Positions 3,290 through 57,071 are shown, counted from the stretch's first letter. The stretch: DNA of 64,000 bases from Patescibacteria group bacterium (GCA_022711335.1 JAKLFF010000001.1:40260-104259); one strand, 5' to 3'. Notes: generated by a model not told the origin, from the sequence alone. A program made the numbers and translations.

Positions 3290-3400
3290 TAAATATTTTC
3301 TTCCAATTATAACATAAACAAATATCATCTTTATGCGCGGTCGCCAGAGGCGACTAAATCTACCAATTCCGCTTTACCCGCCTCCGGCGGGCACTTCGGC
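3290..3400 (-). other. tRNA-Leu-like fragment (acceptor 5-prime half plus D-arm) interrupted by GC-rich hairpins; possible pseudo-tRNA or structured leader
   Basis: The minus strand reads GCCGAAGTG[CCCGCCGGAGGCGGG]TAAAGCGGAATTGGTAGA[TTTAGT]CGCCTCTGGCGAC. It shares GCCGAAGTG and the GCGGAATnGGnAGA D-arm with the intact tRNA-Leu 120 bp away. No anticodon or T arm follows. Confidence 0.3.
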
Positions 3401-6966: not shown

Positions 6967-6976
6967 GAGTTTATTA

Positions 6977-7105
6977 TGAATTTAGAATTTAGAATTTCGA
7001 ATTTTGAATTGGAATCTGGAATATTGAATTTCGAGGTAATCTCGGCTGTTTTTTATTTTAAATTCTTAATTCCCATTCTAAATTCCAACTTCACAATTCA
7101 AAATT
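6977..7105. repeat. Inverted arrays of heptameric GAATTTN repeats flanking a ~60 bp core, intergenic between topA 3-prime end and rel 5-prime end
   Basis: The left arm is gaatttagaatttagaatttcgaattttgaattggaat. The right arm is ttctaaattccaacttcacaattcaaaattc, the reverse orientation. Confidence 0.6.
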
Positions 7106-20700: not shown

Positions 20701-21969
20701 ATGGGAATTTTTTCAAAAATTTTAGGTTTCGGAAACATTTCACAGGATTTTTTGCTTTCTTTGGATATAGGGACGGAAGTGGTAAAAGCACTAGTTTTTA
20801 AAATCAATAAAGAAAGCGGATTAGGGATAGTAAAAGGAGTTGGAAGATCAAGGCAAGGGCTTAAAGATATGCATAGCGGAGCTGTTTCTGATATAAAGGG
20901 AGTTATTGATAATTCAAAAAAAGCGATTGAAATGGCCAAAAACATGGCCGGAGCCAGAAAGATAGAAAAAGCTGTCATTGGAATTGCCGGAGAGCTGGTA
21001 AAAGGAACAACTACTACTGTTCATTATGAAAGAATTCGCCCGGAAATTCGAATTGATCTTCCGGAACTCAAAAACATTATTCAAAAAGTCCAATGGAAAG
21101 CCTTTGACCGCATCAGGCAGCAGCTGGCCTGGGAAACGGGACACAGCGAAATTGAAGTGAAGCTGATAAACGCGGCGATTGTGGATGTTCGGATCGATGG
21201 ATACAAGGTGACCAACCCAATCGGTTTTCAGGGACGCGACGTATCTATCGCTGTTTTTAATGCATATGCCCCGATGATTCATTTAGGGGCGCTTCAGGCT
21301 ATTGCGGATGAATTGAAACTGGAGCTGCTAAATGTTGCGGCTGAACCTTACGCTGTGGCCAAATCTATGGGACTTGACGATATAACTGACTTTAATGCGA
21401 TTTTTATTGATATAGGAGGAGGAACGACCGACATCGCGGTAGTGAGAAACGGCGGACTGGAAGGAACAAAAATGTTTGCTTTAGGAGGCAGGGCTTTTAC
21501 AAAAAGACTAGCGCATGAACTGGGCGTGGGATTTGAAGAAGCGGAGGTTTTGAAAATAAGGTATTCTGAAGGAAAATTAGGGCGGGACGTCAGTATGAAA
21601 GTAGAAAGGATATTGGAAGACGATTGCAATGTTTGGCTTTCCGGCATTGAACTTTCTCTTTCTGAGTTTGCTTCAAGCGATCTTCTTCCTCATAGATTTT
21701 TCCTTTGCGGCGGAGGTTCTGGCCTTCCGGGAATAAAAAAGGCGCTTGTATCTTCTGGATGGACGGGAAATCTTCCCTTTGCCAGAATTCCGGAAGTTAG
21801 TTTTTTGCAGCCTAAAGACGTGGTTAATATAAAAGATGAAACAGGCGAGCTTCGCGATCCGCAAGATATAACGCCAATGGGATTGGCCAATCTGGCCTTA
21901 GATCTGGTTGGCGAAGAAAAAGTTATGGCCGGAATCTTAAGAAGAGCGGTAAAAATGATACAAAAATAG
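20701..21969 (+). CDS. Actin-fold ATPase of the FtsA/PilM family (FtsA-like)
   Basis: Phosphate-1 is LSLDIGTEVVKALVF. Phosphate-2/adenosine is IFIDIGGGTTDIAVV...FALGGRAF. The length of 422 aa fits FtsA, but no ftsZ lies downstream. Confidence 0.6.
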   Translation: MGIFSKILGFGNISQDFLLSLDIGTEVVKALVFKINKESGLGIVKGVGRSRQGLKDMHSGAVSDIKGVIDNSKKAIEMAKNMAGARKIEKAVIGIAGELVKGTTTTVHYERIRPEIRIDLPELKNIIQKVQWKAFDRIRQQLAWETGHSEIEVKLINAAIVDVRIDGYKVTNPIGFQGRDVSIAVFNAYAPMIHLGALQAIADELKLELLNVAAEPYAVAKSMGLDDITDFNAIFIDIGGGTTDIAVVRNGGLEGTKMFALGGRAFTKRLAHELGVGFEEAEVLKIRYSEGKLGRDVSMKVERILEDDCNVWLSGIELSLSEFASSDLLPHRFFLCGGGSGLPGIKKALVSSGWTGNLPFARIPEVSFLQPKDVVNIKDETGELRDPQDITPMGLANLALDLVGEEKVMAGILRRAVKMIQK

Positions 21970-22105
21970 AATTTTGAATTTGGAATTTTGAATTTGGAAT
22001 TAAAATGCAAAAAATAAAAAATACATAAATTATCATAGTGCCAATTTATTTTTTGGGCTTATATTTATTCTAAATTCTAAATACTAAATTCTAAATTTCA
22101 ATTTT
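21968..22105. repeat. Inverted arrays of heptameric GAATTT(N)/GGAATTT repeats in the intergenic region
   Basis: The left arm is gaattttgaatttggaattttgaatttggaatt. The right arm is ttctaaattctaaatactaaattctaaatttc. The architecture matches 6977..7105. Confidence 0.6.
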
Positions 22106-34285: not shown

Positions 34286-34298
34286 AAATCCGATATGC

Positions 34299-34334
34299 AA
34301 AACCCCCTTAACTTTGTATTAAGGGGGTTTTGCT
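34299..34334 (+). terminator. Terminator hairpin in convergent intergenic region
   Basis: caaaaccccc ttaactttgtattaa gggggttttg. Confidence 0.6.
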
Positions 34335-34363
34335 ATTAGAAAGAAGTAGAGATCTACTTTTAC

Positions 34364-34409
34364 CCCCGCGCTAATTCCAACTAATATTAGTTGGAATTAG
34401 CGCGGGGGC
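34364..34409. repeat. 46-bp perfect palindrome (23-bp arms, no loop), preceded by a 16-bp perfect palindrome at 34344..34359
   Basis: The 46-bp palindrome is cccccgcgctaattccaactaat|attagttggaattagcgcggggg. The 16-bp one is aagtagagatctactt. Confidence 0.8.
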
Positions 34410-35285: not shown

Positions 35286-36164
35286 TTAAATTGAAAAAAT
35301 AGCAATTCTCCATCTGGAAGCCAGATCTCTTTGAAAACTCGGTTTGCACTTCGGGAAGGACGTTTTTATCAGTTTGGATATTTTTGTTTTTTGTTCGGGA
35401 CTTATCTCCATATAACATGAAACATGGAACATGGAACAATTTTCTTTCAAGGTTTTTATTTGCTGTAATAATTTTTTATAGTGATCAAGTCCGTCGATTC
35501 CGGAAAGTAAAGCGGACTGCGGTTCATAATTTTTAACATCCGGTGCTGTTGAATTATAAATTTTTTCAGAAAGATAGGGAAGATTGGCGACAATAATTAA
35601 ATGGTTAAATTGTTTAATGGCTGGATTGTTTAAAAAGTGGCTTAACAGATTTGATCTGATAAATTTTATTCCGCCAGCTGGCGGATTATCCAGTTTATAT
35701 TTTTTGGCGTTTATTTTTGCGATTTTTAGAGCTTTTTCTGAAATGTCAATTCCGTAAAAGGACATCAAATGTCCATAATGGACATTTGATGTCCGAAGAT
35801 TTTTTGCAATAGAAATAATAATATTTCCAGAACCCGTACCAACGTCAATAATTGCAATTTTGTTATTTTTACTAGTTGCTAGTTGCAAATTACCGGTCAC
35901 TAATTCAACCAGATGCTCTGTTTCCGGCCGTGGAATGAGCGTGTGGCGGTTTACTTTGAAATCCAGGCCGTAGAACCCCTTCTGGCCTAAAATATACGCC
36001 AGAGGCTCGTTTTTTCGCCTTCTGGCGGTCATGGCTTGAAGTTTTTTTTCTTCAAGCTTGGTTAATTTCAATTCGGGGCGCGTCGAAACATATTCTCTTG
36101 ACTTTTTGAGAATATGTGCTAGAATCAATTCTTGTTCGTAGGGGGAAATAATGTTTTTTTTCAT
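35286..36164 (-). CDS. prmC: Release-factor glutamine N5-methyltransferase PrmC (HemK)
   Basis: NEPLAYILGQKGFYGLDFKVNRHTLIPRPETE is present. The SAM motif is IIDVGTGSGNI. NPPY-like IVANLPYL is present. It is adjacent to prfA on the same strand. Confidence 0.8.
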   Translation of the reverse strand: MKKNIISPYEQELILAHILKKSREYVSTRPELKLTKLEEKKLQAMTARRRKNEPLAYILGQKGFYGLDFKVNRHTLIPRPETEHLVELVTGNLQLATSKNNKIAIIDVGTGSGNIIISIAKNLRTSNVHYGHLMSFYGIDISEKALKIAKINAKKYKLDNPPAGGIKFIRSNLLSHFLNNPAIKQFNHLIIVANLPYLSEKIYNSTAPDVKNYEPQSALLSGIDGLDHYKKLLQQIKTLKENCSMFHVSCYMEISPEQKTKISKLIKTSFPKCKPSFQRDLASRWRIAIFSI

Positions 36165-38501: not shown

Positions 38502-38667
38502 GGGACACTCCTTGGCTGAAAAGTTAATAAGCTAAAAAGTGCAGGTTGAACACATTATATATTTAAACTTGAATTTGTCAAAATGGCTTAATTTGGATGA
38601 AAGTAGCAATTTGAATTTTTTTGTTCTTTGAAGTATGCTTAATTCATCAAGAGATAAAAAAATAATT

Positions 38668-39714
38668 ATGCGAAAAATACTTATTGTAGGCGCAAAAGGG
38701 ATGTTGGGGCAAGAATTGGTCAAAACGTTTAGGAAAGACAGTGATTACAAAGTAATTGCCTGGGACAAAGAAGATATAGATATCACGCGGGAAAAAGAGG
38801 TAGACAAAAAAATCGGCATAATTAAGCCGAGTATTATTATCAATGCGGCGGCATATAATGCGGTGGATAAGTGCGAGGAAAATAAAAAAGAATTTGGATT
38901 GGCCAAAGAAATAAACGGTCTGGCGCCAGGATATTTGGCGAAAGCGGCAAAGAAAATAAAAGCGGTTTTAATCCACTATTCAACCGATTACGTTTTTGAT
39001 GGTGATTTAGAGAAGTTATTGTTTTCCGAGCCATCTGGCCCGCTTCGACTCGATGAGACATCTCGTCGAATCGAGGCGAGCTGCTCTCATGTTTGCGCGA
39101 CTTGTTTGCTTCATGAAAACGGGGAAATAGGTTATGGCGAAGATCATGAACCCAATCCAATCAGCAATTACGGAAAAAGCAAGCTGATGGGCGAGCAGGA
39201 AATTCAGAAAAATTATAAAAATCATTATATTATCCGCCTTTCCAAATTGTTTGGCAAGCCAGCCCAAGCTGAAGGAGCCAAAAAAAGTTTTTTTGATGTG
39301 ATGTTGGAGTTAGGCAAAAATCCGCCAGCTGGCGGAAAAGAAATTCACCCTGTTGAATACGCCGCAAAGCGGCGTCCGCCAGAGGCGGAATTCAATAGGG
39401 TAAAAGCTGTTGACGAAGAAACCAGCTGTTTCACTTATGCTCCAGATTTGGCCAAGAAGACCAAGGAAATAATTAATAGCAAAAAGCCGTTTGGCATTTA
39501 TCATGTAACTAACAGTAGATCTTGCACCTGGTACGAAGCTTGCGTGGAGCTCTATAAACTGGCTAAGATTAAAACAAAAGTGATTCCAGTTCCAGCATCT
39601 GAATTTCCACGTCCGGCCAAAAGGCCGATGTATTCGGTTTTATTAAATACAAAATTAAATCCACTCCGGGATTGGAAAGAAGCTTTAAGGGAGTATTTAA
39701 AAAATAATAAATAA
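38668..39714 (+). CDS. rmlD: dTDP-4-dehydrorhamnose reductase (RmlD/RfbD) with two GC-rich palindromic in-frame insertions
   Basis: MRKILIVGAKGMLGQ is the Rossmann N-terminus. HYSTDYVFDG and YGKSKLMGE are catalytic-region motifs. The start was moved to 38668. The protein is ~50 aa longer than canonical. Confidence 0.8.
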   Translation: MRKILIVGAKGMLGQELVKTFRKDSDYKVIAWDKEDIDITREKEVDKKIGIIKPSIIINAAAYNAVDKCEENKKEFGLAKEINGLAPGYLAKAAKKIKAVLIHYSTDYVFDGDLEKLLFSEPSGPLRLDETSRRIEASCSHVCATCLLHENGEIGYGEDHEPNPISNYGKSKLMGEQEIQKNYKNHYIIRLSKLFGKPAQAEGAKKSFFDVMLELGKNPPAGGKEIHPVEYAAKRRPPEAEFNRVKAVDEETSCFTYAPDLAKKTKEIINSKKPFGIYHVTNSRSCTWYEACVELYKLAKIKTKVIPVPASEFPRPAKRPMYSVLLNTKLNPLRDWKEALREYLKNNK

Positions 39715-42655: not shown

Positions 42656-43923
42656 AAATTGCCATTCAAGCGGCGGATTTGGACAGCCAGCGGATTGATG
42701 GAACGCGGGTTTATATTTTGAATGTTCTAAAATACTTTGGAAAGCTCGATGAATCCAGTGATTTTTTGGTTTATCATAAAAAGAATTTCAATTCGGAACT
42801 CGAGCCGCCGGAATTTCCAAACTACAAAATAATTCAAAAAAATTCAGCTTGTATCTGGACGCAGACCAGATTTGCCTGGGAAATTTGGAAAGACAAGCCG
42901 GATGTCCTCTGGATGCCGATGCAGGCGCTTCCAATTATACGAAGGAAAAATCTTAAAACCGTGATAACTGTCCACGATCTGGCTTTCAAAATTTTTCCGA
43001 ATCAATTTACAAGAAATGATTTAAGGCGACTAAATTTTTATGCCGATTACGCTATAAAAAATTCTTCAAAAATAATCGCTGTTTCGGAGTCGACAAAAAA
43101 AGATATTTTAAAGTTTTATCCTGAAATAAAAGAAGATAAAATCAAAGTTATTTATCATGGGTTCGATGAAGGAGTTTTTGGTAAAAGATATGATAATAGT
43201 GAGATACTGGATATTTTGGAGAAATATAATATTATCAATAAAGTTCAAAGTTCAAAGTTCAAAGTTCAAAGCTACAGTTCAAAACTAAAAGTTACTTTTA
43301 AATACCTGCTATATGTCGGAGCTTTACAGCCAAGGAAAAATTTGATTTTATTGGTTAAGGCATTCGAAAGACTAAAAGAAAAATATTGTCATTCCGGCCA
43401 ACGAGCCGGAATCCAGTCTGGAAACAAAGATAATGCACTAGATTCCCGCTTTCGCGGGAATGACAAAAACGCCGGTGATTTTAGCAATTTGAAATTAGTT
43501 TTGGTTGGGAAACCAGCCTGGATGGCGGAAGAAATTTTAGAAAGAATAAAAAAATCAGAATTTGCAAACGATATAATTTTAGCCGGCCAAGTTGGCTTTG
43601 GTGATCTTGGTAAAATTTATCAAGGCGCCAGCGCTTTTGTGTTTCCCTCGCTTTATGAAGGCTTCGGGATTCCGATTTTGGAAGCTTTTGCGTCGGGAGT
43701 GTCGGTGATTTGCGCCAACAATTCTTCTCTTCCGGAAGTAGCCGGAGAAGCGGCGCTTTATTTCAAAAATAATAATCCTCAAGATTTAGCCATACAAATT
43801 GAAAAAATATTATTAAGCGAAGAATTTAAAAAAGACCTTGTTTCAAAAGGCCTCTTGCAGCTTCGAAAATTTTCTTGGGAAAAATGCGCCCGGGAAACTT
43901 TAAGTTATCTCAAATCAGGCTAA
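42652..43923 (+). CDS. Family-4 (GT-B) glycosyltransferase carrying a 7-bp tandem repeat and an in-frame MITE-like insertion in the interdomain region
   Basis: The C-terminal GT4 core is LLYVGALQPRKNL...FVFPSLYEGFGIPILEAFASGVSVICAN. Confidence 0.75.
   Translation: MKIAIQAADLDSQRIDGTRVYILNVLKYFGKLDESSDFLVYHKKNFNSELEPPEFPNYKIIQKNSACIWTQTRFAWEIWKDKPDVLWMPMQALPIIRRKNLKTVITVHDLAFKIFPNQFTRNDLRRLNFYADYAIKNSSKIIAVSESTKKDILKFYPEIKEDKIKVIYHGFDEGVFGKRYDNSEILDILEKYNIINKVQSSKFKVQSYSSKLKVTFKYLLYVGALQPRKNLILLVKAFERLKEKYCHSGQRAGIQSGNKDNALDSRFRGNDKNAGDFSNLKLVLVGKPAWMAEEILERIKKSEFANDIILAGQVGFGDLGKIYQGASAFVFPSLYEGFGIPILEAFASGVSVICANNSSLPEVAGEAALYFKNNNPQDLAIQIEKILLSEEFKKDLVSKGLLQLRKFSWEKCARETLSYLKSG
43241..43271 (+). 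repeat. Heptanucleotide tandem repeat (AAGTTCA)x4.4 inside the GT4 coding sequence
   Basis: aagttca aagttca aagttca aagttca aag. It translates as KVQSSKFKVQS. Confidence 0.85.
43387..43465. mobile_element. MITE-like double-hairpin element, copy 3, in-frame inside the GT4 gene
   Basis: tgtcattccggccaacgagccggaatccag, a spacer, then ctagattcccgctttcgcgggaatgaca. The encoded peptide is CHSGQRAGIQSGNKDNALDSRFRGNDK. Confidence 0.9.
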
Positions 43924-47376: not shown

Positions 47377-48564
47377 ATGCGTATTTTAGTTGTGGCGCCA
47401 ACGCCTTTTTTTTCTGATCGGGGAACTCATATCAGAATTTTGGAAGAAGCGCTGGCGCTCGAAAAATTAGGCCACGATATCACTATCGCGACTTATCATA
47501 TTGGAAAAGATATCCGGCGGGAGCTTGATACTAAAATCGATGTAAGGCGAATTTTGAAGCTGCTTTTTTGGTATAAAAAAACAGAGGCCGGTCCGGACTG
47601 GCAGAAGATTATTCTTGATATGATGCTCATCCGAAAAACTTTTTTTCTTGCCCGGACAAAAAGACCTGATATAATTCACGGCCATCTCCATGAAGGCATA
47701 TTGATTGGATGGATTGTGCAGAAATTATTATTTTGGAGAAAAATAAAGCTGGTAGCTGATTTTCATGGAAGCCTTACAAAAGAAATGCTTTCCCACGGCT
47801 ATCTTAAGCGCGGGCTCAAGGGCGTATTTGGAATAGTAGAAAAAATTATCAACAAGCTAGGCGATTTCGCCATAACAAGTTCGTGGGAAATGAGCGAAGA
47901 AATCAAAAAATCGAGGCATGACGGAAAAATTGAAACAATTCTGGATGGGACAAATTTGGACAGTTTTAATCTTAAAAAAACCAAAGAAGAAGCCAGGGAA
48001 GAATATGAAATTCCGGCCCATAAATTTGTTGTCGGCTATACTGGAAGTTTGGTCAGCAACAAAGGGATAAATTATTTTTTGGAAAGCATCCCGGCGGTTT
48101 TAAAAGAAAACAGGAATGTCTTTTTTGTGATTGGCGGATTTCCGGCGGAACACGCGGAAAAATTTATAAAAGAAAATAATTTGTCAAAAAACGATGTCAG
48201 ATTGATAAGCCCGCTTGATTATTTTAAGCTTCCCGAGCTTTTGGCTTGTTGCGACGCGGTAGTGGATCCTAAAGATTCCAGTGTTGCCCAAGCCAGCGGA
48301 AAAATATTGAACTATATGGCGGCTGGACTTCCTATTGTATGTTTTGATAAAATAAACAACAGGAAGTATCTTGGCGAGGGAGGATACTATTGCAAAGAAG
48401 TCGGTTCCGAAGCGATTGCTCAAGGAATTTTTTATTTTTTTGAGAATGAAAACGAAAGGACAAAAAAGGGAGAACTGAATAAAAAAAATGCCAAAAATTT
48501 CAGCTGGGATATTCCAGCTCATAAAATAAATTTAATTTATAATAAAATCCGCCCTGTTAAATAA
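47377..48564 (+). CDS. Family-4 glycosyltransferase (GT-B)
   Basis: The N-terminus is MRILVVAPTPFFSDRGTHIRILEEALAL. The C-terminal region is ...GLPIVCFD... Confidence 0.75.
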   Translation: MRILVVAPTPFFSDRGTHIRILEEALALEKLGHDITIATYHIGKDIRRELDTKIDVRRILKLLFWYKKTEAGPDWQKIILDMMLIRKTFFLARTKRPDIIHGHLHEGILIGWIVQKLLFWRKIKLVADFHGSLTKEMLSHGYLKRGLKGVFGIVEKIINKLGDFAITSSWEMSEEIKKSRHDGKIETILDGTNLDSFNLKKTKEEAREEYEIPAHKFVVGYTGSLVSNKGINYFLESIPAVLKENRNVFFVIGGFPAEHAEKFIKENNLSKNDVRLISPLDYFKLPELLACCDAVVDPKDSSVAQASGKILNYMAAGLPIVCFDKINNRKYLGEGGYYCKEVGSEAIAQGIFYFFENENERTKKGELNKKNAKNFSWDIPAHKINLIYNKIRPVK

Positions 48565-48626
48565 TTTTTCTGAAGGAAAAATGATTTTGTTCCGCAAAGT
48601 TTATTTAACAAGGGCAAATCTAAAAA

Positions 48627-55472: not shown

Positions 55473-57071
55473 ATGAATTTTTCTAATAATATGCCCGCCA
55501 AAGGCGAGTCCGCCTTTGGCGGAAAAATCTCTATATCATATCCGCCGTTAGAATCAAAAAAAGGCATTGCTTGCCTGGCGCAAAACCGCCAGTTCCAGTG
55601 GTTCAGCCATCCGACTTACATCTATCCGGTTATTCCGGCTTATGCAGCCTCGTTTCTCAAGGCCAATGGATATGATGTTTTGTGGGATGATGCGATCGCG
55701 GAAGAATTGAATTATGAACAGTGGAAAGAAAGAATAGTCCGGGAAAAACCGGATATTATTGCGATTGAAACAAAGACACCGGTAGTGAAAATGCATTGGA
55801 AAATTATTGATGAAATAAAAAGAGAATTGCCTGATTCCAAGGTGGTATTGATGGGAGATCATGTGACGGCGCTGCCCAAAGAATCTTTGGAAAATTCCAA
55901 AGTTGATTATGTGATCGCCAGCGGGGATTATGATTTTGCGCTTTTAAATCTAGCCAATCATCTGTCAAAAGGCGAAGCGCTGGAGGGGGGCTTTTGGTAT
56001 CGGAAAAATTGTCATTCTCGCGAAAGCGGGAATCTAGAGGCAGGCAGTAAAGACTGGATCTCCGCTTTCGCGGGGATGACAGAAAAAGAATATAAAGAAT
56101 CAGAAATAACCACCACTGGGCCGGCAGATATTTCAAAAAATAATTTAGATACTCTGCCGCTTATCGACAGAAAGCTCACGAAGTGGAAAATGTATGGATA
56201 TAAAAATGGAAATTTCAAATATACGCCTGGCGCTTACATGATGAGCGGGCGCGATTGCTGGTGGGGAAAATGCACTTTCTGTTCCTGGACAACTATGTTT
56301 CCGGGAGAGAAATTTCGAACGATGTCGGCTGAAAAAGCGCTCAGCGAAGTGGAAAATCTGATTAAACTGGGTGTTAGAGAAATTATGGAAGATAGCGGTT
56401 CGCTTCCGGTTGGGCAGTGGCTCAAAGATTTTTGCCGTGGAATGATAGAACGGGGATATAACAAAAAAATAACGATGAGCTGCAATATGAGGATTACCGG
56501 CATAAAAGATCTTGAAACATGGGAGCTTATGAAAAAAGCCGGCTTCCGGTTTATTCTTTTCGGACTGGAATCAGCCAATCAGGAAACGCTTGACCGAGTT
56601 TGCAAAAATCTCGAGGTTTCAGAAATTGAACCAGGTCTCAAACTGTGTAAAGAAGGCGGGCTCGAACCTCATATCACTGCTATGATCGGCTACCCGTGGG
56701 AAACAAAGGAAATGGCTCAAAAAACGATAAGCTTGGCGAAAAAATTGTTCAAATGCGGATATGTAGACACGCTTCAGGGAACAATCGTGATTCCTTATCC
56801 GGGAACGCCTTTATATAAATACTGCGCTGAAAACAATTTGCTTCTAACCAAAAATTACGAAGATTATGATCAGCGCCAGATGGTTATGAAATCGCCACTG
56901 GCTTCCGAAGATGCCAAAGGACTGGTGCAGGGACTGTATAAGTCTTTTATGAGCCCCCAGTTTATCTGGCGAAAAATAAAATCCATAAGAAATATGGATG
57001 ATATAAAATTCTTTTTTATGGCTGGCTGGAAATGGATGGGGAAGATGATGGATTTTGGAAACAAAAAATAG
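55473..57071 (+). CDS. B12-binding-domain radical-SAM protein with in-frame MITE-like insertion
   Basis: It has an N-terminal B12-binding-like domain. The radical-SAM cluster motif is RDCWWGKCTFCSW. The ORF reads through repeat copy 4. Confidence 0.8.
   Translation: MNFSNNMPAKGESAFGGKISISYPPLESKKGIACLAQNRQFQWFSHPTYIYPVIPAYAASFLKANGYDVLWDDAIAEELNYEQWKERIVREKPDIIAIETKTPVVKMHWKIIDEIKRELPDSKVVLMGDHVTALPKESLENSKVDYVIASGDYDFALLNLANHLSKGEALEGGFWYRKNCHSRESGNLEAGSKDWISAFAGMTEKEYKESEITTTGPADISKNNLDTLPLIDRKLTKWKMYGYKNGNFKYTPGAYMMSGRDCWWGKCTFCSWTTMFPGEKFRTMSAEKALSEVENLIKLGVREIMEDSGSLPVGQWLKDFCRGMIERGYNKKITMSCNMRITGIKDLETWELMKKAGFRFILFGLESANQETLDRVCKNLEVSEIEPGLKLCKEGGLEPHITAMIGYPWETKEMAQKTISLAKKLFKCGYVDTLQGTIVIPYPGTPLYKYCAENNLLLTKNYEDYDQRQMVMKSPLASEDAKGLVQGLYKSFMSPQFIWRKIKSIRNMDDIKFFFMAGWKWMGKMMDFGNKK
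56010..56081. mobile_element. MITE-like double-hairpin element, copy 4, in-frame inside the radical-SAM gene
   Basis: tgtcattctcgcgaaagcgggaatctag, a spacer, then ctggatctccgctttcgcggggatgaca. The encoded peptide is CHSRESGNLEAGSKDWISAFAGMT. Confidence 0.9.

Follow-up and report, generated by a model that had tools for sequence, protein, structure and literature searches.

The stretch of DNA analysed here (the window) comprises 64,000 nucleotides (nt) from a Patescibacteria group bacterium (GCA_022711335.1 JAKLFF010000001.1:40260-104259) and carries two copies of a short, GC-rich hairpin palindrome, each inside a protein-coding gene. The first host gene, prmC (open reading frame (ORF) 35286-36164, minus strand), encodes PrmC_N and methyltransferase domains and aligns to solved HemK/PrmC structures; the second, rmlD (ORF 38635-39714, plus strand), encodes an RmlD_sub_bind domain and aligns to solved dTDP-4-dehydrorhamnose reductases. 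The RmlD protein is called from the Met at residue 12 (348 amino acids) in NCBI and other sources, the starts of orthologues agree, and the true start of rmlD is probably 38668 rather than the listed 38635. All of the nearest homologues come from Moranbacteria or other Parcubacteria. JGI metagenome contig Ga0116241_10000279 carries the gene for an identical RmlD protein, an identical PrmC protein is present in NCBI (HRZ95656.1, from a Candidatus Moranbacteria metagenome-assembled genome), and the same genes with the same inserts are found in independent JGI, ENA, NCBI and Logan assemblies. The two copies are as follows.

35670..35685, no strand assigned: palindrome copy 1, TCCGCCAGCTGGCGGA, in prmC (ORF 35286-36164, minus strand).
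39321..39336, no strand assigned: palindrome copy 2, TCCGCCAGCTGGCGGA, in rmlD (ORF 38635-39714, plus strand).

The window has exactly two occurrences of the 14-mer CCGCCAGCTGGCGG (35671-35684 and 39322-39335), and in each copy the perfect palindrome extends to 16 nt, TCCGCCAGCTGGCGGA, which forms a GC stem of 6 base pairs (bp) with a 4-nt loop. Read in gene sense, the identity between the prmC and rmlD copies spans 19 nt, AATCCGCCAGCTGGCGGAA. Copy 1 reads AAT CCG CCA GCT GGC GGA on the gene strand and is translated as NPPAGG, as is copy 2, and the peptide contexts are KLDNPPAGGIKF in PrmC and KNPPAGGKE in RmlD. A preliminary description of this DNA had named both genes, placed identical copies at exactly these coordinates and read the same hexapeptide in both, all of which holds, whereas two of its figures require correction: the 14-mer it called GC-only has G or C at 12 of 14 bases, and the GC content of the window is 39.3% rather than ~35%. 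It had further judged the recurrence improbable by chance. Under Markov models (orders 0 to 3) fitted to the window itself, the expected count is 2e-5 to 2e-3 and the probability of at least two copies is 2e-10 to 2e-6, and 100 dinucleotide shuffles of the window yielded 0 copies. The window contains no one-mismatch variants of CCGCCAGCTGGCGG; its near-matches are one sequence with two mismatches and two with three. The judgement is upheld for the count. A palindrome places two copies in the same reading frame one time in three by chance, and the common frame of the two copies is weak evidence on its own; a preference for one frame reaches significance only in the larger set of CPR (Candidate Phyla Radiation) copies described below.

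Comparison with orthologues reveals that both copies are insertions. At the PrmC position, 117 of 120 orthologues read (L/V)D-KK-IKF, and the window and two others read LD-NPPAGG-IKF; the PPAGG of the window protein falls in an alignment gap relative to the Thermotoga HemK structure. Empty prmC alleles have GAC AAG AAA ATA AAA (locus L126) or GAT AAA AAA ATA (L127), and filled alleles have GAT AAT CCG CCA GCT GGC GGA ATA AAA, a net gain of 12 nt. RmlD orthologues read NKKE at the insert site, where the empty alleles of the closest relatives (L128 and L004) have AAA AAT AAA AAA GAA and the filled alleles of the window and L003 have AAA AAT CCG CCA GCT GGC GGA AAA GAA, so that the net gain is 12 nt here as well. 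Filled and empty alleles show no target-site duplication at either site, with two to four A's replaced, and A-runs could hide small duplications. Residues 229-254 of RmlD are missing in all solved structures, and in a structural model of moderate confidence (pLDDT, the predicted local distance difference test score, 63.5) the inserts are predicted as coil of low confidence, flanked by helix 219-228 and strand 256-259; this lends supportive but weak evidence that they lie in a loop. An origin of the solo copies as remnants of an excised larger element was rejected, as no traces of terminal repeats flank them.

The RmlD site has been filled repeatedly. NPPAGG or a one-residue variant occupies exactly this position in 13 of 120 orthologues, a fraction that is inflated because the list was ranked by similarity to an insert-bearing query. 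Almost all of the 13 have empty nearest neighbours at 78-88% identity, and the filled state is scattered, with at least 12 state changes on a neighbour-joining tree. Empty alleles are Lys-rich (NKKE, KNKE), and none of them shows NGKE, the residue of a precise 12-nt deletion, suggesting that gains are likelier than losses. Variants come from L005 and from a set of 80 further loci selected by conserved RmlD peptides, to which L148, L154, L163 and L172 belong. A perfect palindrome occupies the same site in L172 with a net gain of 9 nt, and another lies at a second RmlD site, ten residues upstream, in L163. Decayed copies are present as well, with one mismatch in L005 (net gain 6 nt) and two in L148, and the peptide variants include NPPADG, NPPAGE and PVGG. 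L154 (975-1010) carries a one-mismatch copy at the same site in another frame (GK-SASWR-TPVG-EVK), where a second, partial copy stands in tandem behind the palindrome (TCCGCCAGTTGGCGGA CGCCAGTTGGC) and 27 nt replace ~9 nt; an insertion that arrived out of frame may have been rescued here by slippage duplication. As frames and junctions differ, the RmlD events are independent and took place at the DNA level. A strict rule of +12 nt holds in PrmC, RmlD, DnaK, MetK and GatB and was rejected because L005, L172 and L154 break it.

To place the palindrome in a wider context, WWTCCGCCAGCTGGCGGAWW was searched for in a collection holding one genome per prokaryotic species. At least 120 loci carry it, against approximately nine expected collection-wide by a rough estimate under a uniform model. 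Among the matches listed, to which the counts in this paragraph refer, 55 are titled Patescibacteria or Candidate Phyla Radiation (CPR) and come from many classes, with Saccharibacteria, Microgenomates and Parcubacteria lineages among them. Of the 64 copies in CPR loci, 37 fall within ORFs of at least 150 amino acids, and the PPAGG frame (24 copies) is favoured over SASWR (8) and RQLA (5; p=9e-5 relative to an expectation of one third). In loci outside CPR, the three frames are used evenly and the majority of copies fall beyond long ORFs. The palindrome is also found between genes. CPR host genes encode MetK, TsaD, SufS, TatD, AspRS, RadA, ribosomal protein L4, RsgA, DnaK, UvrC and GlyRS, and further exonuclease III, Tgt, GatB, FtsK, RpoC and PheS; in DnaK, MetK and GatB the insert coincides with a four-residue gap relative to solved homologues. 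Across 138 sites, the only conserved flanking bases are AA to one side of the palindrome and TT to the opposite side, which extends the cross-genome consensus to 20 nt, AATCCGCCAGCTGGCGGATT.

Over-representation is also evident in ~740 kb of relatives' DNA chosen regardless of the palindrome, where the 14-mer was observed 3 times against 0.004 expected and CCGCCAGCTGGCGG is the sole GC-rich 14-nt palindrome that recurs. A restriction-site effect was rejected, since the CAGCTG core is at its expected frequency (18 observed, 16.5 expected). A phage origin was likewise rejected, given just 10 sites among 2.9 million viral contigs, mostly from one phage group. Loci L131-L138 are related viral contigs from IMG/VR (for example IMGVR_UViG_3300042540_000531) with two or three exact palindromes in conserved ORFs, where they encode ...KSTIPPAGGFTQ..., ...KYQIPPAGGITS... 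and FRQLAEFATK...; these contigs might represent CPR phages. Another palindrome, TTCCGGATCCGGAA, was seen in four different loci of an unbiased CPR sample (L143-L220) and may be another element or a conserved coding motif.

The palindrome belongs to a family of hairpins and composite elements. Hairpins built as CCGCC-loop(3-4 nt)-GGCGG number five in the window, at 3378, 35671, 39322, 39376 and 55510, against ~0.16 expected (an estimate from 39 CCGCC and 133 GGCGG in the window), and none with the arms in reversed order. Three window hairpins have the longer stem TCCGCC/GGCGGA, with AGCT, AGA or TTT as the loop, and in the DNA of Moranbacteria relatives TCCGCC is the commonest GC-rich six-base hairpin stem, again with varying loops. 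The related features in the window are listed below.

39346..39402, plus strand: in-frame 57-nt insertion HPVEYAAKRRPPEAEFNRV in rmlD, 10 nt downstream of palindrome copy 2.
39359..39375, no strand assigned: hairpin ACGCCGC-AAA-GCGGCGT, first of the two inner hairpins in the 57-nt element.
39375..39389, no strand assigned: hairpin TCCGCC-AGA-GGCGGA, TCCGCCAGAGGCGGA, the second inner hairpin of the 57-nt element, with the stem of the palindrome and another loop.
55509..55523, no strand assigned: hairpin TCCGCC-TTT-GGCGGA, TCCGCCTTTGGCGGA, within the N-terminal part of a B12-binding radical SAM gene (55473-57071), in the other frame (SAFGG).
3340..3391, no strand assigned: two intergenic GC hairpins, GTCGCCAGAGGCGAC (3340-3354) and CCCGCCTCCGGCGGG (3377-3391), between tRNA-Leu and parA.

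The 57-nt insertion in rmlD has terminal inverted repeats, ACCCTGTTGAAT and ATTCAATAGGGT, with a pair of GC hairpins between them, and its fold is a three-way junction (-29 kcal/mol as DNA, z = -6.9). It is missing in L003, L004, L005 and L126 and present in L128, and L127 and L139 carry variants in which the stem sequences differ but are compensated. Fifteen elements of 37-64 nt with ends of the ACCCTGTTGAAT / ATTCAATAGGGT type were found in the loci, and their inner hairpins vary yet stay paired. Their terminal inverted repeats measure 12 nt, and the 16-nt unit on its own amounts to a single inverted repeat. One of the fifteen elements, L115:24-78, combines the terminal repeats of the 57-nt element with AATCCGCCAGCTGGCGGATT as its inner hairpin, suggesting that the palindrome is a module of a wider family. 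Units of the SAxGG type are inserted at several sites of RmlD orthologues. The hairpins beside tRNA-Leu resemble the family in having a GC stem (GTCGCC-AGA-GGCGAC compared with TCCGCC-AGA-GGCGGA) and may, judged from their sequence, be relatives of it. The radical SAM gene has, over its first 40 codons, a cluster of CCGCC/GGCGG sequences together with the hairpin CTGGCGCAAAACCGCCAG (55575-55592), and the whole region (55495-55592) may be a composite of several small inserts. A 64-nt element at 48551-48614, with terminal inverted repeats of the ACCCTGTTAAAT type and an AT-rich interior, overlaps the end of a glycosyltransferase ORF (47377-48564) and reaches into the intergenic spacer.

Further palindromic in-frame inserts were recovered in an unbiased indel survey of the window against four syntenic relatives, and the 120 RmlD orthologues contain at least eight peptide families of palindromic inserts at no fewer than 12 sites, in either orientation. 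Within rmlD, a 42-nt in-frame insert at 39040-39081 encodes PLRLDETSRRIEAS and is an imperfect palindrome with 13-bp arms (CGACTCGATGAGA cat TCTCGTCGAATCG); at that site it is present only in the window and two other RmlD orthologues. Its reverse complement encodes SPRFDEMSHRVEA, which is seen at two other RmlD sites in other orthologues, and the element thus appears to have been inserted in both orientations. Within prmC, a 35-nt, almost perfect, AT-rich palindrome at 35760-35794, GGACATCAAATGTCCATAATGGACATTTGATGTCC, matches the position of an insert of 8 residues (VHYGHLMS) missing from relatives and from solved HemK structures, which shows that palindromic in-frame inserts here are not confined to GC-rich sequences.

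A second repeat family, GATTCCCGCTTTCGCGGGAATGAC, is present at 1075-1098, 2488-2511, 43441-43464, 56011-56034 (minus strand) and 56057-56080. It occurs in-frame in a GT4 glycosyltransferase, as a 32-residue insert (...AGIQSGNKDNALDSRFRGNDKN...) in which two inverted hairpin units at 43385-43466 form a REPIN-like doublet, and in the radical SAM gene 55473-57071 (...SRESGNLE...WISAFAGMT...). Many other CPR loci have copies too, with stems that differ by compensatory changes. AT-rich heptamer repeats lie at 43240-43275, 21963-22000 and 6975-7000; the heptamer AAAGTTC, repeated three times and more, encodes KVQSSKFKVQS within the GT4 gene, GAATTTTGAATTTGGAA lies between genes, and comparable heptamer runs flank palindrome copies in Patescibacteria locus L035. 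A spacer between convergent genes contains long perfect hairpins at 34297-34333 (GCAAAACCCCCTTAA...TTAAGGGGGTTTTGC) and 34363-34408 (the 46-nt palindrome CCCCCGCGCTAATTCCAACTAATATTAGTTGGAATTAGCGCGGGGG), which are probably bidirectional terminators. The genes of the window are ordinary chromosomal ones, including ParA/ParB, RelA/SpoT, topoisomerase I, DprA, AlaRS, TyrRS, ribosomal proteins and many glycosyltransferases. In a search of the whole window against Rfam at the gathering score, tRNA was the only match, and a search of 39250-39450 returned nothing beyond sub-threshold chance matches.

Taken together, these data point to a miniature, non-coding hairpin element that has probably been inserted at the DNA level into A-rich loops coding for Lys and Asn in Moranbacteria prmC and rmlD. 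The core of the element is the 16-nt TCCGCCAGCTGGCGGA, and its cross-genome consensus is the 20-nt AATCCGCCAGCTGGCGGATT. The preliminary description had suggested a mobile palindrome of very small size that coding sequence tolerates, and this suggestion is borne out by insertions relative to orthologues, repeated gains at the same and other sites and frames, over-representation in relatives and the frame preference of CPR copies. Its other proposal, a recombination or binding site, gained no positive support, given the low density, the decayed copies and a CAGCTG core at expectation. The comparisons above demonstrate insertion, recurrence and a reading-frame filter; as to the mode of copying, we infer that the element is non-autonomous and would depend for its copying on hairpin-recognising machinery supplied in trans. 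Chemistry on single-stranded DNA at replication forks would be the most plausible, as in the system of repetitive extragenic palindromes (REPs) and their RAYT enzymes or in HUH enzymes of the IS200/IS605 type. A hairpin-recognising enzyme of this kind appears most likely because the element is a bare hairpin with a conserved stem and a variable loop that occurs both solo and in composites. Integration would be imprecise and directed to A/T-rich sites, after which selection would retain copies that preserve the frame, lie in surface loops and encode a harmless, flexible peptide; such selection for harmless-peptide frames could account for the excess of the Pro-Pro-Ala-Gly-Gly frame.

In a bolder form of this hypothesis, the bare hairpin of 16-20 nt would be a 'nano-element', the smallest mobile DNA unit yet, recognised sequence-specifically by CPR-wide machinery and entering A-rich sites. 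This form is possible but doubtful. As the typical net gain is 12 nt, most insertions would keep the frame, and, together with sister hairpin families and composites, such a unit would constantly remodel the surface loops of essential CPR proteins.

Several observations weigh against a mobile element. The Pfam scan of ~47 of the 57 window ORFs, together with precomputed Pfam families for most of the remaining genes, detected no transposase, HUH or RAYT domain, and in 1.9 Mb of loci no element of autonomous size with these terminal repeats was found, nor any gene-enclosing pair of them 300-4000 nt apart. No conserved cleavage motif flanks the element at the 138 sites among the matches listed, where only AA and TT recur. 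Copy number is low, at 2 per 64-kb window and ~1 per 250-390 kb in relatives (2-3 copies per ~740-784 kb, depending on how a duplicate locus is counted), which fits poorly with at least 12 independent gains or losses at one RmlD site. The RmlD count is itself affected by the query-ranked list: among 80 further metagenome loci picked via conserved RmlD peptides and not via the palindrome, ~74 site sequences were read, and the palindrome is at the site in 4 of these (3 after removal of duplicate loci). Presence/absence polymorphism is absent among strains at least 99% identical, so that recent movement is unseen; five cluster members at this level all have every insert and differ only in the called start. 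The palindrome is identical among PrmC alleles that are 55-73% identical in protein, which could reflect selection on the sequence, and the identity is compatible with recent independent insertion and with selection alike. Lastly, the junctions are ragged and the targets A-rich, features that polymerase template switching fits equally well.

Template switching, or microhomology-mediated ectopic conversion between A/T tracts, would copy the hairpin with no dedicated enzyme, using as donors terminator-like sequences elsewhere in the genome (A-run, GC hairpin, T-run), and is considered rather unlikely. It accords with targets that are A-rich Lys/Asn codons and with target bases being replaced rather than duplicated, the net change in length being +6, +9 or +12 nt or, in L154, 27 nt for ~9 nt with a partial tandem copy typical of hairpin slippage. 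The rmlD copy and its upstream A-run also form a terminator pattern on the opposite strand, many intergenic copies elsewhere resemble bidirectional terminators, and neither an enzyme among the window proteins nor an autonomous partner in the 1.9 Mb of loci was found. However, such copying leaves unexplained the recurrence, in distant CPR classes, of a single exact 16-20-nt sequence and a few other fixed families in place of a random mix of terminators, as well as the combination of a conserved stem with varying loops, and the window holds no donor copy with matching flanks.

A functional cis-acting site maintained by selection in tolerant loops, whether a protein-binding or regulatory site, a recombination, restriction-modification or DNA-uptake site or an antisense terminator, is very unlikely. 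All 18 nt, including five four-fold degenerate positions, are identical in the divergent PrmC alleles, the palindrome is perfectly conserved in RmlD of the window, L003 and L172, and the same sequence recurs across phyla. However, selection as read from third positions was rejected, because conservation in one PrmC pair that probably shares its insert by descent is not significant (0.69^5 = 0.16). DprA is consistent with a capacity for natural transformation, and its presence in the window would suit an uptake site, as the terminator-like antisense strand of the rmlD copy would suit a terminator. Yet the density falls well short of what uptake sequences or highly iterated palindromes reach, the palindrome is missing from most orthologues, decayed copies have survived, the CAGCTG core shows neither avoidance nor enrichment, and the hosts are unrelated genes read in three frames. 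Chance, convergent codon choice for a common peptide or an artefact of assembly or sequencing is extremely improbable. A palindrome shares its frame one third of the time and GC-rich hairpins can disturb sequencing, but chance was rejected on the shuffles, mismatch counts and Markov expectation, the identity lies at the DNA level and not in the peptide only, and an artefact is at odds with identical genes and inserts in the independent assemblies and with inserts that keep the frame of essential genes.

A mobile hairpin element thus remains the favoured reading, and it can be set against known systems. Searches of the literature on the sequence, the encoded peptides and CPR combined with palindromes or MITEs (miniature transposable elements that carry inverted repeats) found nothing relevant, with incomplete coverage, and the hairpin element has seemingly not been described before. 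It differs in size and lineage from the palindromic elements of Rickettsia (RPEs), and it departs from most of the features that define REPs and MITEs. REPs resemble it in that a short, GC-rich hairpin with a conserved stem is the sole conserved feature, non-autonomous and single or composite, although REP palindromes are imperfect and the palindrome here is perfect. REPs, however, are extragenic, number tens to hundreds per genome, have a GTAG-type tetranucleotide head and are associated with a RAYT gene, whereas here both window copies are intragenic (as are 37 of 64 CPR copies among the matches listed, in ORFs of at least 150 amino acids), copies are few (2 in 64 kb and 2-3 per ~740-784 kb in relatives), the flanks at the 138 sites carry AA/TT only and no RAYT is encoded among the window proteins. 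MITEs are likewise small, non-coding and rich in inverted repeats with stable stem-loops, to which the 37-64-nt relatives with 12-nt terminal inverted repeats correspond, but MITEs usually exceed this size, at 50-500 bp, and have target-site duplications and a parent insertion sequence, neither of which was found here, in the alleles compared and in the 1.9 Mb of loci respectively. To our knowledge, the 16-nt unit is smaller than any MITE described.

HIP1 of cyanobacteria (a highly iterated palindrome) and DNA uptake sequences number about one per kb, and substitution or uptake bias is the main route of their spread. They share with the element the character of short palindromic or oriented oligomers within coding regions that show frame preferences, but the element is rare per genome, far from a density of ~1 per kb, and arrives as a length-changing insertion. 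Intrinsic terminators do not match its position, both copies lying mid-gene; the rmlD copy alone fits the pattern, on the antisense strand only, because it was inserted beside an A-run. Yeast mitochondria contain mobile GC clusters and 'byp' hairpin elements, the latter skipped by the ribosome so that the frame need not be kept. The GC clusters are similarly GC-rich palindromes of AT-rich genomes, optional in coding genes and divided into many related families, but they are organellar, whereas all genic copies here are stop-free, in-frame and apparently translated.

Palindromic elements of Rickettsia were reportedly treated by Ogata and colleagues in 2000. RPEs are in-frame palindromic selfish DNA in housekeeping genes (PMC10969869). 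The element studied here is likewise an in-frame palindromic insert that is missing from orthologues, and the two systems share non-coding palindromic repeats in unrelated housekeeping genes of small AT-rich genomes, a short peptide added at tolerated positions, division into several families and no obvious target duplication. RPEs measure ~100-150 bp and are confined to Rickettsia, whereas the core here is 16-20 nt and its relatives 37-64 nt, in Moranbacteria and across CPR classes, and the element hits the same site repeatedly at a low copy number per genome. What stands out is its extreme smallness, the repeated gains at one codon and its presence in essential genes across CPR. The arrival of one exact 16-nt sequence repeatedly at the same codon in different lineages would call for a new mechanism, such as hairpin-specific chemistry on single-stranded DNA or templated switching. 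The element accounts for many odd Pro/Gly/Ala/Ser-rich inserts and split domain matches in CPR housekeeping proteins, which is relevant to the annotation, alignment and phylogenomics of CPR genomes, and the inserts supply presence/absence markers between close lineages. In behaviour, the element resembles RPEs as its closest analogue and is also like the mitochondrial GC clusters, at about one tenth of RPE size; if the proposed reading is correct, the occurrence of selfish DNA within protein-coding genes, familiar chiefly in Rickettsia and mitochondria, would extend to CPR and to a far smaller size.

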